From Chloroflexota bacterium (GTDB taxonomy: Bacteria; Chloroflexota; Anaerolineae; JACRMK01): 64,000 nucleotides of DNA. The notes under the pieces were generated by a model, which was given only the letters and a program-made list of their open reading frames with translations, ran no database searches and had not been told where the DNA came from. Of this stretch, positions 7,888 to 59,470 are shown in pieces; within the stretch, counting starts at the first letter, position 1, and the number at the start of each line of letters is the position of its first letter. The translations under genes were made by a program, and so were the position numbers. The stretch lies in the NCBI GenBank assembly GCA_016235055.1, contig JACRMK010000056.1, positions 23,359 through 87,358 on the forward strand. The letters are read 5' to 3'.

Positions 7888-8076
7888 CCACATTCGCCAA
7901 GGGGTATTACGCACAACTGGCGGAATTGTCGCATATCGGCGTCAGCGTAGGGACAGTTCGCGACACCCCAAAGGGTGCGATGCTCGGCCGCCCGGCCCGC
8001 GGGCGCATCGCGATGCGCCCCTACATTGCGCCAAACCGGTGTGCCCGACAGTTTGGCGGCAAAGTCTCGCCAAGTA

Positions 8077-8333
8077 CAGCAATTCTCATTTTGGAGTCGG
8101 CTGCCACTATGCCCCCTCATCCCCTGCCCCTTCTCCCCCGCGGGGGAGAAGGGGAAAAGCTAACGGGGAGGTGCGCGGCGGCTGCGCCGCCGCGTCAATC
8201 CCCTATGAATCTCGCCCCCTCCCAACTTCGTTGGGAGGGGGTCGGGGGGAGGGCAGCGCCACTTCTTCGGCGGGCCAGCGCATCGCGAGCGGCGTTGAAA
8301 AGTACCCGTCCAAAGCCAAATTGAGAATTGCTG
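8077..8333. mobile_element. TIR-bounded palindrome-rich miniature element, copy 1 (257 bp), flanked by a 9-bp direct repeat CGCCAAGTA
   Basis: Termini cagcaattctcattttgg ... ccaaattgagaattgctg are inverted repeats. CGCCAAGTA occurs at 8068-8076 and 8334-8342. The interior has three GC-rich palindromes. Confidence 0.7.
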
Positions 8334-8364
8334 CGCCAAGTAACCGTTTTACGACCTCGGCGTG

Positions 8365-17442: not shown

Positions 17443-18675
17443 ATGAGCCCTGACATCACCCAAGAAATCCGGTCGCTCGTCGCCCAGCGGCGCGACTCGA
17501 TGATCCGGTTCTTCCGCGATATCTGCGCGATTCCGTCGTACGACTCGCAGATCGGCCCCGTGGGCGAGCGCGTCGGCCAGGAGATGCGCGCCCTCGGCTT
17601 CGACGAGGTGCGCTTCGACAAGATGGGCAATATCCTGGGCCGCATCGGCAACGGGCCGCGCTGCCTGGTGTATGATTCGCACATCGACACCGTCGGCGTC
17701 GGCGATCCGGCCGCCTGGGAGTGGGATCCGTTCAAGGGCAAGGTTGAAAACGGCATTCTCTTCGCGCGCGGGGCATGCGACGAAAAAGGCTCGACGCCCG
17801 GCATGATCTACGGCCTGGCGCTCGCCCGACAGCTCGGTCTGCTGCACGGCTGGACCGCGTACTACTTCGGCAATATGGAAGAGTGGTGCGACGGCATCGC
17901 CCCCAACTCGTTCGTTGAGGTGGACCCAAGGGTACGCCCCGATTTCGTCGTCATCGGCGAGCCGACCAAGATGCAGGTCTATCGCGGGCACAAAGGGCGC
18001 ATCGAGTTGCAGATCACGGCCAGCGGCAAATCGGCTCATGCCGCGCACCATCACCTGGGTGACAACGCGGTGTACAAGATGCTGGACATCATCGCGGGCA
18101 TCCGCGATCTCGACGCGCAGCTGCCGAGCGACCCGTTCCTGGGCAAGGCAACCGTGGTTGTCACCGATGCTGAGGTGCACACGCCGTCCATCAACGCCGT
18201 GCCAGACCTGTTCAGTATCTTCATCGACCGCCGCATTACGTTCGGCGAGACGCGCAAAGGCATCGTGGAGCGCATCCAGGCACTGATTCCGGCTGAACTG
18301 CGCGGCGAGATCACGCTCAAAGAGATGTTCTACGACACGCCGAGCTACACCGGCTTCGTCTTCCCGATCGAAAAGTACTATCCGCCCTGGGCGCTCGATG
18401 AGACGCATCCCCTGGTGCGCGCCGGGCAACGCACGATGGCGCGTCTGTGGGGCGAAGCGCCGCCCACGGGCAAATGGGGCTTCTCGACCAACGGCACCTA
18501 CTGGGCGGGGAAGGCGCAGATACCGTCGATCGGCTTCGGGCCCGGCGACGAGGTCCACGCGCACACCACGCTGGACCAGAACAAGCTCGACGATGTGGTG
18601 CGCGCCACCGAATGGTACGCGCTTTTTCCGACCGTGTTGGCGCAACTTACCGCCGCCGTTACGCCGGAGTTCTAG
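17443..18675 (+). CDS. M20-family peptidase, YgeY-like
   Basis: HIDTV, ARGACDEKG and EPT...GHKG motifs, 410 aa. Confidence 0.85.
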   Translation: MSPDITQEIRSLVAQRRDSMIRFFRDICAIPSYDSQIGPVGERVGQEMRALGFDEVRFDKMGNILGRIGNGPRCLVYDSHIDTVGVGDPAAWEWDPFKGKVENGILFARGACDEKGSTPGMIYGLALARQLGLLHGWTAYYFGNMEEWCDGIAPNSFVEVDPRVRPDFVVIGEPTKMQVYRGHKGRIELQITASGKSAHAAHHHLGDNAVYKMLDIIAGIRDLDAQLPSDPFLGKATVVVTDAEVHTPSINAVPDLFSIFIDRRITFGETRKGIVERIQALIPAELRGEITLKEMFYDTPSYTGFVFPIEKYYPPWALDETHPLVRAGQRTMARLWGEAPPTGKWGFSTNGTYWAGKAQIPSIGFGPGDEVHAHTTLDQNKLDDVVRATEWYALFPTVLAQLTAAVTPEF

Positions 18676-18688
18676 CCGCTCGTTGTAC

Positions 18689-18719
18689 GCCCCGCACCGT
18701 GCCGGTGCGGGGCTTTTTT
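18689..18719 (+). terminator. Rho-independent terminator (11-bp GC stem + T6)
   Basis: gccccgcaccg-tgc-cggtgcggggc-tttttt, 14 nt after the peptidase stop. Confidence 0.7.
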
Positions 18720-18746
18720 GTTGCCCGCAAGCCGGGCCTCTGCATG

Positions 18747-19034
18747 CAGCAATTCTCAATTTGGCTTTGTACGGGTACTTTCCAATGCCGCTTGCGATGC
18801 GCTGGCTCTCAGGCGCTTGTCACGCAAGCTGGCCCGCCGAAAAAGTGGCGTTGCCCTCCCCCCGACCCCCTCCCAACTTCGTTGGGAGGGGGCGAGATTC
18901 TTCGGGGATTGGCGCGGCGGCGTAGCCGCCGCGCCAATCCCCGTTAGCTTTTCCCCTTCTCCCCCGCGCGCGGGGGAGAAGGGGCAGGGGATGAGGGGGC
19001 ATATTGGCAGCCGACTCCAAAATGAGAATTGCTG
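18747..19034. mobile_element. TIR-bounded palindrome-rich miniature element, copy 2 (288 bp, opposite orientation to copies 1 and 3), flanked by a 9-bp direct repeat CTCTGCATG
   Basis: CTCTGCATG occurs at 18738-18746 and 19035-19043. TIR cagcaattctcaatttgg ... caaaatgagaattgctg. Confidence 0.7.
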
Positions 19035-19146
19035 CTCTGCATGCGAGCGCCGCGACCGCACGGTGGTATCATATATCCAGGAAGAGTGCGTGCGGCTTCT
19101 CACCGATTGCCGTCGGGCACGGACACAGTGAGCCCGAAAGGAGGCC

Positions 19147-20106
19147 ATGATGCGGAGTTTTCTGGGCCGCGACATCCTGTCGCTGAAGGATTTCGAACGT
19201 GACGATTTCACGCGTGTCTTTCAAGTCGCCAAAGACCTCGAGCCGATTGCGCGCGACCGGCGCAACAGCGACCTGCTGGCGGCCAAGACGCTCGTGACGG
19301 CATTCTACCAGCCGAGTACCCGCACCCGGCTGGCGCATGAGGCGGCCATGCACCGGCTCGGCGGCCACGTGGTCGGGTTTGCCGACTTCAAGATGACGCG
19401 CGCCGGCGACTGGTATCAGGAATCAATCAAGGATACCGTTCGCATGCTCGAGTATTACGGTGACGCAATCGTCATGCGCCATTTCCTGCAGGGCGCGCCC
19501 GCCGAGGCTGCGCGCTGGGCCAGCGTTCCGGTGATCAATGCAGGCGACGGTTGGGGCGAGCACCCCACACAGGTGCTGACCGACTTGTACACTGTGCGCG
19601 AGGAGCGCGGCCGCATCGACGGCCTGACGTTCCTCTGCATCGGCGATATGCGCATGCGGACGATGCACTCCCTCTCGTATGCGCTCACCCAGTTTGATTG
19701 CCAGGCGATCTACGTCGCGCCGCCCGACATGTCGCTGACGGACGAGTTCAAGGCCGAGTTGCGCGAGCGCAACCTGCGTTTCCGCGAGGCAGAGCATGTC
19801 GCACAAGTGATCGATCAGGCCGACGTGATCTACATGGAGCCGGTCATCCAGGCCGACTACACGCAATCGCGCGTCGAGCACGCGTCCGAGCGGCCGCATA
19901 CGCCGGATAACTATGTCGTCAGCCGCGAACTCCTGCGTGACAAGGCGCGCTCCGATGCCATCATCCTGCACTCCCTGCCGCGCATGGACGAGTTGCCCGC
20001 CGACGTGGATGGTACCCGCCATGCGCGCTACTGGCAGGAAGCGTTCAATGGCGTTGTCGTGCGCATGGCGCTGCTGGCCTTGATCCTTGGCGCGGCTGAG
20101 CGGTAA
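19147..20106 (+). CDS. aspartate/ornithine carbamoyltransferase family protein (divergent, PyrB-like)
   Basis: The STRTR carbamoyl-phosphate motif and HPTQ are present. The C-terminal motif is LHSLP rather than the canonical HPLP/HCLP, and the 80s-loop region is atypical. Confidence 0.8.
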   Translation: MMRSFLGRDILSLKDFERDDFTRVFQVAKDLEPIARDRRNSDLLAAKTLVTAFYQPSTRTRLAHEAAMHRLGGHVVGFADFKMTRAGDWYQESIKDTVRMLEYYGDAIVMRHFLQGAPAEAARWASVPVINAGDGWGEHPTQVLTDLYTVREERGRIDGLTFLCIGDMRMRTMHSLSYALTQFDCQAIYVAPPDMSLTDEFKAELRERNLRFREAEHVAQVIDQADVIYMEPVIQADYTQSRVEHASERPHTPDNYVVSRELLRDKARSDAIILHSLPRMDELPADVDGTRHARYWQEAFNGVVVRMALLALILGAAER

Positions 20107-20121: not shown

Positions 20122-20235
20122 GCGCATATCCCGTCGATCGGCTTCGGTCCGGGCGACGAGGTCTACGCGCATACCACGCTCGACCAGATCAGCCTCGACG
20201 ATGTCGTGCGCGCAACCGAGTGGTATGCGCTCTTG
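20122..20235 (+). pseudogene. orphan duplicated 3' fragment of the M20 peptidase gene (about 85% nt identity to 18517-18630)
   Basis: Encodes ..IPSIGFGPGDEVYAHTTLDQISLDDVVRATEWYAL, compared with IPSIGFGPGDEVHAHTTLDQNKLDDVVRATEWYAL at the peptidase C-terminus. It has no start codon or upstream body. Confidence 0.55.
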
Positions 20236-20449
20236 TCCGCGCTGCTCGCGCACCACATGGCTGCAACCTCGCCCACGCCGCAACACCGCAAAGATCAGGC
20301 CGGAGTTCAATGCTCACCAAAGGCGCCCAGATGCGGGCGCCTTTGTCTTTTGTGCCTGCGCCCCATGCCAATTTACCCTTCACAGGGAGTGACATTCGCC
20401 CCTTCCGCCGCACGGCAGCTTCGAGTAAACTAAGGAGCGCGCATCGTTC

Positions 20450-42628: not shown

Positions 42629-43600
42629 GTGAAACGCTACGAACTAATCACTTTCGGCGAAAATATGATCCGCCTTTCGACGCGCGACTACGAGCGGCTG
42701 GAACAGGCGCAGACGCTCGACGTCCGCCACGGCGGCACCGAAGCCAATGTCGCCGTGGGACTGGCGCGGCTGGGGCATCGCACCGCCTGGTTGTCGCGCC
42801 TGGGCGACAATGCGCTCGGACACCGGATCGAGCGCGACATTGCATCATGGGGCACGGACACCAGCCGAGTGATCTGGGCGCCCGACGAGCGCGTTGGCGT
42901 ATTCTTTCTCGAAGTAGGGGCAGGCGCGCGGGGGTCGTCGGTGCTTTATGATCGTCGCGACTCCAGCATGAGCCGCATGGGCGTCGAGACGTTCCCGTGG
43001 GAATGGCTTGCGGAGGCCGGGTGGCTGCATCTCACCGGCATCACGACGGCGATTAGCAGCAGCTGCGAGGAACTGGTGCGCGAGACGCAGCGACGCGCGC
43101 ACGAAGCCGGATTGACCGTGTCGTACGACGTGAACTACCGGGCCAAGCTCTGGACGCCGGAACGAGCGCGCGAGGTCGTCAGCCCGCTCTGCCGCGACGC
43201 CGACATCATGTTCATGAAGCATTCCGATGTGGAGCGCGTCTTCGGCATTCGCGAGGCTACCGCCGAGGATGACCTGCGCGCGCTGGCATCCCGCTTTGCG
43301 CGCAAAGTCGTGGTGATGACAGCGGGCGCGGACGGCGCGCTGGCGTTCGACCAGCAGAGCGGGCAGATCGCACGTGCCCCGGCCCACCCGCTGACGCACG
43401 TGGTCGATCGCGTCGGCGCCGGCGATGCGTTCGCGGCCGGATTCATCGCGGGTTATCTGGAGACCGGCATCGAATGCGGTCTGCGCATGGGCAACGCGAT
43501 GGCGGCGCTCAAAATGACCATTCAGGGCGACTACGCGCTCGTGTCGCGCGCCGAGGTTGACGGCCTGCTGGCCGGCAGGTCCGGCGGCATCAGCCGCTGA
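42629..43600 (+). CDS. PfkB-family sugar kinase (2-dehydro-3-deoxygluconokinase-like)
   Basis: GGTEANVAVGLARLG N-terminal motif and the C-terminal DRVGAGDAFAAGF ATP-binding motif. Confidence 0.85.
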   Translation: MKRYELITFGENMIRLSTRDYERLEQAQTLDVRHGGTEANVAVGLARLGHRTAWLSRLGDNALGHRIERDIASWGTDTSRVIWAPDERVGVFFLEVGAGARGSSVLYDRRDSSMSRMGVETFPWEWLAEAGWLHLTGITTAISSSCEELVRETQRRAHEAGLTVSYDVNYRAKLWTPERAREVVSPLCRDADIMFMKHSDVERVFGIREATAEDDLRALASRFARKVVVMTAGADGALAFDQQSGQIARAPAHPLTHVVDRVGAGDAFAAGFIAGYLETGIECGLRMGNAMAALKMTIQGDYALVSRAEVDGLLAGRSGGISR

Positions 43601-43604
43601 ACCG

Positions 43605-43892
43605 CAGCAATTCTCATTTTGGAGTCGGCTGCCAATATGCCCCCTCATCCCCTGCCCCTTCTCCCCCCGCGCGCGCGGGAGAAGGGGAAAAGCTAACGGG
43701 GAGGTGCGCGGCGGCTGCGCCGCCGCGCACCTCCCCTAAGAATCTCGCCCCCTCCAACGAAGTTGGGAGGGGGTCGGGGGAAGGGCAGCGCCACGTTTTC
43801 AGCGGGCCAGCTTGCGTGACAAGCGCCTGAGAGCCAGCGCATCGCAAGCGGCATTGGAAAGTACCCGTACAAAGCCAAATTGAGAATTGCTG
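43605..43892. mobile_element. TIR-bounded palindrome-rich miniature element, copy 3 (288 bp), flanked by a 9-bp direct repeat GCTGAACCG
   Basis: GCTGAACCG occurs at 43596-43604 (contains the TGA stop of the kinase gene) and 43893-43901. Confidence 0.7.
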
Positions 43893-43917
43893 GCTGAACC
43901 GTCGTCGCATTGACAAG

Positions 43918-43949
43918 AAAAGGCCACCATGGTGTGCATGGTGGCCTTT
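43918..43949. terminator. bidirectional terminator hairpin downstream of the HU gene
   Basis: aaaaggccaccatg-gtgtg-catggtggccttt with A-run and T-run flanks. Confidence 0.5.
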
Positions 43950-43967
43950 CGTGGCTGCGGAGTTGCG

Positions 43968-59197: not shown

Positions 59198-59246
59198 TAC
59201 TATTTCAACTAGGCCATGTCCTCATAGAGATAGTGCAAGTGCAAGT

Positions 59247-59400
59247 GCCGCCCCCTCATCCCCTGGCCCCTTCTCCCCCGCGCGCGGGGGAGAAGGGGAA
59301 AAACTAACGGGGAGGTGCGCGGCGGCTACGCCGCCGCGCACCTCCCCGGAGACTTGCTCCCCCTCCCAGCTTCGCTGGGAGGGGGCTGGGGGGAGGGCAG
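59247..59400. repeat. internal fragment (about 154 bp) of the palindrome-rich miniature element, lacking both TIRs
   Basis: Retains all three internal palindromes (cccccgcgcgcgggggag; ggggaggtgcgcggcggctacgccgccgcgcacctcccc; ccccctcccagcttcgctgggaggggg). It has no cagcaattctca termini. Confidence 0.6.
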
Positions 59401-59470
59401 AATTTGGCGGTGTGCCGTGTGCTCATGCGACATGAGGACATTTTCAATTTGAAACAGTATGATAACACAC

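Follow-up and report, generated by a model that had tools for sequence, protein, structure and literature searches.

The subject of this report is a repeat family found in a window of 64 kb (the whole stretch of DNA analysed, 64,000 nucleotides of contig JACRMK010000056.1 from a Chloroflexota bacterium, with a GC content of 65%). The repeat is almost certainly a miniature, non-coding and non-autonomous DNA transposon of 257-288 bp, that is, a transposable element of the miniature inverted-repeat kind (MITE), of which the window holds three full copies (copies 1, 2 and 3) and one bare core (copy 4). The core contains three GC-rich palindromes, P1, P2 and P3, and some of the differences between the copies preserve the stems of these palindromes: judging from the comparison of the copies, these compensated changes probably originated at the DNA level, by template switching during replication or by conversion of one palindrome arm by the other. 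As for the statement as a whole, a MITE mobilised in trans whose stem-preserving differences arose by template switching in the DNA, it is held here with moderate confidence. The set of four copies is most likely an ordinary mobile element, and not evidence for a selected RNA structure.

Identity and boundaries of the element

The boundaries of the element are defined by an 18-nt terminal inverted repeat (TIR), CAGCAATTCTCAWTTTGG, that occurs at both termini of copies 1-3; its six exact matches in the window compare with an expected number of 0.04. Each full copy is flanked by a perfect 9-bp target-site duplication (TSD), which is CGCCAAGTA for copy 1, CTCTGCATG for copy 2 and GCTGAACCG for copy 3 (Table 1). 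All four copies are intergenic, and they lie in both orientations relative to the neighbouring genes. Compared with copy 3 (43808-43837), copy 1 has an internal deletion of 30 bp at position 8280, and the stretch is present in copies 2 and 3; the GCCAGC direct repeats that bound it are the signature of a putative slippage deletion.

Regarding copy 3, the kinase-like open reading frame that lies upstream (42629-43600) has its TGA stop codon (43598-43600) inside the TSD, and this gene is intact only because the insertion on the stop codon duplicated the target; since the element follows directly after the stop codon, the transcript of the gene must run into it. The HU gene beside copy 3 served as a handle for retrieving related DNA, and the site of copy 3 turned out to be empty in a close relative (locus L098, from run SRR22387922, with an HU protein 98% identical), where a single CGGTTCAGC is read straight through; the nearest named HU homologues, with 76-78% identity, are found in metagenome-assembled genomes (MAGs) of Verrucomicrobiota. 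A Burkholderiales origin of the window, suggested by the style of its terminators, was discarded in view of these homologues and of plasmid matches that were weak and mixed. For the sites of copies 1, 2 and 4, a concatenated search with the flanking proteins, aimed at the close relative, gave no near-identical orthologues (the best had 83% identity), and exact look-ups returned either nothing or only contigs of the same strain ending at the repeat.

These same-strain contigs, which derive from three sequencing runs overall, are informative on the copy number; the samples that contain the strain are SRR12113394, SRR12113397 and SRR12113407. At copy 3, contigs from two runs end 16 to 30 nt inside the TIR, and those beside copies 1 and 4 reach into the element for about 4 to 28 nt before they end; such breaks of short-read assemblies inside the TIR or the core are the usual mark of a multi-copy repeat. 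Finally, the open translated segments of the element, concatenated from five of its six reading frames, had no homologue in the protein collection searched.

Architecture of the core

The four aligned copies share a core of about 150 nt, which starts on the left with a C-run block, CCCCCTCATCCCCTG, and ends on the right with a G-run block, TCGGGGGGAGGGCAG. Between the two blocks, the order is P1, of the form CCCCTTCTCCCCC(GC)nGGGGGAGAAGGGG, a spacer, AAAAGCTAAC, P2, of the form GGGGAGGTGCGCGGCGGC-TGC-GCCGCCGCGCACCTCCCC, a second spacer, and P3, of the form CCCCCTCCCAAC-TTC-GTTGGGAGGGGG; the three palindromes are mutually unrelated in sequence, with arms of 12 to 19 bp and loops of 0 to 3 nt. 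A P2-like pattern, GCGCGGCGGC-NNN-GCCGCCGCGC, recurs four times in the window, where chance alone would predict 0.01, and no solo P1, P2 or P3 was found elsewhere in it. The element folds equally well on the two strands (-163.3 and -165.4 kcal/mol, z about -8), and the folding energies of the single hairpins range from -24 to -46 kcal/mol.

A preliminary description of this DNA, made from its letters, had assigned three perfect palindromes to every copy: P1-P3 are indeed present in each core, but only nine of the twelve are perfect, the exceptions being P2 of copy 1 and both P1 and P3 of copy 3. The nine perfect ones contain no G-U pair. The same description had located P2 of copy 2 at 18905-18942, which falls within the interval found here (18903-18943) and is short by 1-2 nt on the left, and it had ended P2 of copy 3 at 43735 instead of 43736. 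It was correct in stating that identical hairpins form from either orientation, as the energies of the two strands indicate, and that the centre of P1 varies in the number of CG repeats, this centre being CCCCCGCGGGGG in copy 1, CCCCCGCGCGCGGGGG in copies 2 and 4, and CCCCCCGCGCGCGCGGG in copy 3.

Table 1. Positions in the window of the MITE copies, their target-site duplications, the core-only copy and the twelve palindromes
Feature	Position	Strand	Description
MITE copy 1	8077-8333	+	257 bp; TIRs 8077-8094 and 8316-8333
Copy 1 TSD	8068-8076, repeated at 8334-8342		CGCCAAGTA; read directly from the sequence
Copy 1 P1	8127-8154		Perfect 28-nt palindrome, CCCCTTCTCCCCCG|CGGGGGAGAAGGGG
Copy 1 P2	8165-8203		Imperfect, putative chimera: left arm GGGGAGGTG (A type), right arm TCAATCCCC (B type plus C>T)
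Copy 1 P3	8215-8241		Perfect; arms of 12 bp, loop TTC
MITE copy 2	18747-19034	- (inverted relative to copies 1 and 3)	288 bp; TIRs 18747-18764 and 19017-19034
Copy 2 TSD	18738-18746, 19035-19043		CTCTGCATG
Copy 2 P3	18866-18892		Perfect; loop GAA when read along the element, TTC along the window + strand
Copy 2 P2	18903-18943		Perfect 41-nt palindrome, CGGGGATTGGCGCGGCGGC-gta-GCCGCCGCGCCAATCCCCG; B type, arms ATTGG/CCAAT
Copy 2 P1	18953-18984		Perfect 32-nt palindrome; two extra central CG units relative to copy 1
MITE copy 3	43605-43892	+	288 bp; TIRs 43605-43622 and 43875-43892
Copy 3 TSD	43596-43604, 43893-43901		GCTGAACCG
Copy 3 P1	43655-43687		Imperfect; asymmetric centre CCCCCC(GC)4GGG
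Copy 3 P2	43698-43736		Perfect 39-nt palindrome; A type (AGGTG/CACCT), loop TGC
Copy 3 P3	43748-43773		Loop GAA; left arm with a 1-nt deletion
Copy 4, three-palindrome core alone	59250-59400	+	Without MITE TIRs
Copy 4 P1	59267-59298	+	Within the core-only copy
Copy 4 P2	59308-59348	+	A type, loop TAC
Copy 4 P3	59359-59385	+	Loop TTC; compensated CAGC/GCTG pair
Inverted-repeat frame around copy 4	59198-59459		Arms TACTATTTCAActaggccATGTCCTCAT at 59198-59225, partner at 59432-59459

A separate observation on the core regards canonical G-quadruplex motifs (four runs of at least three G, loops of 1-7 nt): eight of the nine in the window lie in the four core copies, at 8112-8139, 8233-8253, 18854-18874, 18972-18999, 43640-43668, 43765-43785, 59251-59279 and 59377-59397, and the sole motif outside the cores is at 2204-2224. 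Each core has a bottom-strand motif at its left end and a top-strand one at its right end, with an overlap on the outer P1 and P3 arms. Possible effects of these motifs are a competition with hairpin formation or a stalling of replication.

Stem-preserving differences between the copies

The clearest case is P2. In copy 2, its arms are GGGGATTGG...CCAATCCCC, while copies 3 and 4 have GGGGAGGTG...CACCTCCCC: relative to the latter, GGT is replaced by TTG in the left arm and ACC by CAA in the right arm, and the two replacements are exact complements involving three adjacent base pairs. This confirms the strictly complementary relation reported earlier for these arms. The pair changes are G-C to T-A, G-C to T-A, and T-A to G-C, so that the block consists of six substitutions within 10 nt, all of them transversions on both sides, and no G-U intermediate is possible. 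The form of copies 3 and 4 is referred to as A, and that of copy 2 as B.

Copy 1 combines the two forms. Its left arm is that of copies 3 and 4, and its right arm, TCAAT, corresponds to the CCAAT of copy 2 plus one C>T change; the preliminary description had taken this as drift of one arm, and the arms do differ, but the right arm is of the copy 2 type and not randomly drifted, so that P2 of copy 1 is, in our reading, a chimera or an intermediate. The hairpin has three mismatches and one G-T wobble and its energy is -32.4 kcal/mol with RNA parameters, against -44 to -46 kcal/mol for the perfect forms, a loss of about 12 kcal/mol.

As for P3, copies 1 and 4 have the loop TTC in element orientation, and copies 2 and 3 have GAA, one being the exact reverse complement of the other; the chance of such a reversal through point mutation is about 6e-6. 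Copy 4 has a compensated change in the P3 arms as well, from CAAC/GTTG to CAGC/GCTG (A-T to G-C). On the alignment of the four copies (A3), the two-sided pair changes are three in P2 and one in P3, and 97.5% of the cells are in pairs, compared with about 50-58% when the partners are slid.

The changes are also clustered. Between copies 2 and 3, differences affect 7 of the 39 P2 positions, compared with 5 of 190 (about 2.6%) outside the palindromes (binomial probability 6e-5), and the mirrored 3-bp block holds six of the seven P2 differences; by the count outside the palindromes these copies are the closest pair overall, though their P2 forms differ.

It could be proposed that the palindromes are dyad binding sites for a dimeric protein, either of the host or of the transposon, in which identical half-sites are selected, and the perfect Watson-Crick symmetry on both strands would suit a reader acting on DNA. 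Nevertheless, this explanation is very improbable: the arms of 12 to 19 bp with loops of 0 to 3 nt far exceed the half-sites usual in operators, recognition should be altered by the three adjacent positions that distinguish A from B half-sites, and the three palindromes have unrelated sequences. Moreover, the element has no link to any candidate protein, and MITEs with the same TIR in other genomes have unrelated interiors.

Origin of the compensated changes

The origin favoured here is template switching, also known as quasipalindrome correction: the palindrome would fold back during replication and the nascent strand would briefly copy the opposite arm, so that a single event would replace several adjacent bases of an arm with the exact complement of the opposite one. 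A single event could also invert a loop, as in the P3 change from TTC to GAA, or mend isolated pairs, of which the P3 change of copy 4 would be an example. In the literature, perfect stems, inverted loops and compensatory changes of several bases are described as products of one template-switch event (PMC8794818; PMC5453318; PMC3820800), and the footprint in the window comprises a clustered block that is the reverse complement of the other arm, a loop inversion that keeps the length, and an imperfect intermediate. DNA-level conversion is favoured over a stepwise compensation in RNA because of the mirrored block made only of transversions, the loop inversion, the intermediate changed on one arm, and the divergence of only about 2.6% elsewhere. 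The covariation had initially been attributed either to selection or to intra-palindrome conversion; it is real and stem-preserving, and the second option is the one that fits best.

The most parsimonious history can be outlined as follows. A block change on one arm would have produced the imperfect P2 that survives in copy 1; conversion templated by the left arm would then have given the A form of copy 3, which copy 4 shares, and conversion templated by the right arm would have given the B form of copy 2. The ancestor shared by copies 2 and 3 would have undergone one inversion of the P3 loop, and the changes of (CG)n at the centre of P1 would be due to replication slippage.

The first alternative to be weighed is that the hairpins are selected in RNA, as terminators or as stabilisers of mRNA 3' ends, as proposed for REP/BIME, Correia and RUP elements, in which case the changed pairs would be the product of compensatory evolution. 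The stability of the hairpins and the z value of the whole element, the intergenic position of every copy and the nine intact palindromes out of twelve are in line with this possibility; in addition, copy 3 is located in the 3' region of the mRNA of the kinase-like gene, and P2, on the minus strand of the element, is followed by GTTAGCTTTT and is caught by a lenient terminator scan. Yet the U-tract that defines a terminator is missing at P1 and P3 on both strands, and that of P2, on one strand only, is weak and 6 nt away, so that the terminator role suggested in the preliminary description lacks support; further, canonical terminators that existed before the insertions precede copy 2 (18690-18720) and occur on the HU-gene side of copy 3 (43917-43950), and the copies have both orientations relative to their neighbours. 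The pattern of the changes points in the same direction: the perfect stems are devoid of G-U pairs, each pair change of the P2 block requires a mismatched intermediate, with six substitutions in 10 nt between copies that are otherwise 2.6% diverged, and the loop inversion has no rationale at the RNA level. Lastly, the element matches no Rfam family: in the scan of the window, a tRNA was the only match at the gathering score, and generic hairpin matches (miRNA precursors) near the copies were far below threshold. Selection in RNA is thus considered unlikely as the origin of the compensated pairs.

A second alternative considers the A and B forms of P2, together with the states of the loops, as old alleles of diverged MITE subfamilies, shuffled into a mosaic when copies recombined (homologous recombination) or converted one another, the breakpoint falling at the centre of the palindrome. 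Indeed, the characters conflict among the copies: the P2 loop (TAC in element orientation for copy 2, which is GTA on the + strand) groups copies 1 and 3 against copies 2 and 4, the P3 loop groups copies 1 and 4 against copies 2 and 3, and the P2 arms of copy 1 are split, the right one going with copy 2 and the left one with copies 3 and 4, with the switch of type exactly at the centre; donor copies exist as well, the element being multi-copy in the genome. This explanation only moves the question, though, as the mirrored changes on two arms are still needed to pass from A to B or the reverse. Besides, the rest of the element has no matching subfamily structure, copies 2 and 3 being the closest pair and differing in P2, and ordinary allelic conversion does not invert a loop unless an inverted donor already exists. 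We regard this possibility as rather improbable, though not negligible.

Some considerations weigh against the template-switch origin and the mobilisation in trans, and they are gathered here. No transposase of the ISNCY-type group was detected by tblastn in the 64-kb window, and thus mobility in this genome is unsupported. Four copies are too few and cannot fix the order or the direction of the events, and the observed value of covariation was reached in 15 of 500 shuffles, a comparison of little power when the sequences are only four. The change of a 3-nt block that first affected a single arm has no explanation; when a template for the B-type block (CCAAT/ATTGG) was sought elsewhere in the element, only 5-mer matches emerged, and these are uninformative. 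The conflicting groupings of P2 arm, P2 loop and P3 loop may be explained equally well by recombination between copies, and intact hairpins could also be favoured by selection, in addition to the mutational mechanism. In sum, the identity of the element, its TIRs and TSDs, the empty site, and the pattern and clustering of the changes are direct observations, while the mechanism and the direction of the template switch are what we infer from four copies.

The bare core of copy 4

Copy 4 consists of the core without the MITE TIRs and lies inside a different inverted-repeat frame (Table 1), around which there is no clean TSD. Same-strain contigs traverse the left part of this frame and end only inside the core; because they break only there, the core is the repeated unit at this locus and the left frame is single-copy. 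The frame was evaluated as a second MITE family, but was not accepted as an established MITE: it has an inverted repeat but no TSD, and its left part is not repeated in the same-strain assemblies.

On this basis, it can be speculated that the core, formed by the C-run block, P1-P3 and the G-run block for a total of about 150 nt, is a self-propagating structured cassette that enters new frames by template switching or by some mechanism of another kind, and that its paired G-quadruplex motifs stall replication and drive the correction of the arms; this idea is held to be quite doubtful.

Shared termini in other genomes and candidate transposases

The terminus of the element was used to scan GTDB with one genome per species, and 92 loci were retrieved (L001-L092), among which neither this organism nor the core was represented. 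The annotations of the host MAGs include Pseudomonadales, Asaia, Saprospiraceae, Cytophagales, Nitrospira, Cyanobacteria, Chloroflexota, Verrucomicrobiota, Desulfobacterales and Blastocatellia, among others, and about 30 of the 92 matched stretches come from a single Pseudomonadales MAG (OY762824.1). Most of the loci are MITEs of 111-390 bp that have the same termini and unrelated interiors, and 9-bp direct repeats were found at 33 of 37 short elements with these termini. The common terminus spans 17-18 nt, CAGCAATTCTCAWTTTG(G), and examples are L007:3196-3327, L054:6102-6234, L023:400-614 and L031:1480-1621; for an insertion sequence (IS), conservation of the terminus across such phyla is unusual.

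As for the enzyme, a MAG of Asaia has an IS of 1.53 kb with these termini, of which the right end is the exact 18-nt TIR and the left end is diverged; it encodes a transposase of 429 amino acids that has no Pfam match. In pNPUN02 of Nostoc punctiforme there is an IS of 1.64 kb, annotated as 'ISNCY family transposase', whose protein is 47% identical to that of Asaia; its terminus begins with GCAGCAATTCTCAT, and the first 13 nt are identical to those of the window element. These two full-length ISs, both in other genomes, are the loci L020 and L095. According to the mechanism proposed here, a DDE transposase labelled 'ISNCY family' by NCBI would recognise the 18-nt termini and move the MITE in trans, with the formation of the 9-bp duplications.

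Two observations were made on the loci of the terminus scan. The first regards a Saprospiraceae MAG (about 35-40% GC), in which L014:2279-2464, L079:4258-4388 and L081:720-841 represent one AT-rich MITE that differs only in an internal G/C-rich hairpin region: the hairpin of L081 is GTCCCCC-TCCAAA-GGGGGAC, L014 has the loop reverse-complemented (TTTGGA) and an insertion of about 60 nt that is a G/C-rich inverted repeat, and L079 has a third form; this remodelling looks like that of the window element. The second regards L007:3585-5402 (OY762824.1), a frameshifted gene placed between two identical 132-bp MITE copies, with DruA-like, DDE_Tnp_1_assoc and DDE_Tnp_1 domains; this architecture is that of an ISAs1-like transposase, and the arrangement may be a composite one or a coincidence.

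Relation to known elements

The element is a MITE that uses ISNCY-type termini and has an unusual three-palindrome core; the mechanism proposed for the covariation is already known. Like the prokaryotic MITEs mobilised by ISNCY-type elements, it is short, non-coding, bounded by TIRs and direct repeats, and it has a strongly folding transcript or single strand; with the ISNCY-type group it shares the terminal sequence and the 9-bp duplication, and its size is within that of the 111-390-bp relatives. Its interior sets it apart from all the other MITEs with these termini, which have nothing related to the core of three palindromes and paired blocks of G-runs and C-runs. A comparable case is Nezha of Anabaena and Nostoc, described as a MITE of 130-170 bp that has its TIR in common with ISNpu3 of N. 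punctiforme and is mobile as judged from empty and filled sites (PMC3184786). The IS of N. punctiforme found here may be ISNpu3, and the IS group of the window element is possibly the Nezha/ISNpu3 group; this is a lead only.

Regarding the mutational process, the resemblance is with the template-switch mutations of bacteria and yeast, and with those of RNA hairpins (Monttinen and Loytynoja 2022), as regards the mirrored multi-base changes, the loop inversion and the passage from an imperfect to a perfect stem. Here, unlike in those systems, the process would act inside a bacterial MITE and not on an RNA gene or a reporter, and the mechanism is deduced from four copies.

The preliminary description had compared the element with Correia, RUP and BIME. 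The likeness to Correia (Neisseria) and RUP (Streptococcus pneumoniae) stands in that all are MITEs: they are small, bounded by TIRs, non-autonomous, intergenic, strongly folding and found in either orientation. There is no sequence relationship, though, and neither the TIR sequence nor the type of TSD is in common, since the window element has ISNCY-type termini and 9-bp duplications, whereas Correia and RUP duplicate the dinucleotide TA and are derived from other IS families. Correia elements also have an IHF site, promoters and terminator functions, for which the window element has no demonstrated counterpart. As for REP/BIME, the common trait is the presence of GC-rich extragenic palindromes that fold on either strand, and the comparison was not retained: the window element has TIRs and 9-bp TSDs with the palindromes inside, and the ends of P1-P3 are devoid of the GTAG/CGTC tag, whereas REPs, 20-40 nt long, are imperfect palindromes that bear GTAG or CGTC as a tag, linked to RAYT transposases and without TIRs or TSDs (PMC3733652).

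Distribution of the core and neighbouring sequence

The core is known from this window alone, after the searches in plasmids, metagenomes (with the spacer), viral contigs, GTDB (with the TIR) and proteins. In detail, blastn gave no match to the core in plasmid records, two scans of viral contigs were negative for it, and the JGI metagenome scan with the P1-P2 spacer motif gave two matches, both due to chance.

Close to copy 2, the stretch 20122-20255 (about 135 nt) is 82% identical to 18514-18644, the 3' end of the M20-peptidase-like gene (17443-18675) upstream of this copy, and it is placed directly after the aspartate/ornithine carbamoyltransferase-like gene (19147-20106); it appears to be the remnant of a partial duplication or of a rearrangement around the locus.

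Implications

The case of this element is a caution for the discovery of RNA by covariation: the mutation process alone can make perfect, apparently compensated stems in repeated DNA, and for this reason such stems do not prove that an RNA structure is selected. Should the pattern hold genome-wide, the element would offer, in compact form, a natural case of bacterial palindromes repaired by template switching, in which the imperfect intermediate, both products and the loop inversion are all represented. In addition, the terminus of 17-18 nt with its 9-bp duplication, common to MITEs of many phyla, aids the annotation of an IS group that is labelled 'not classified yet'.

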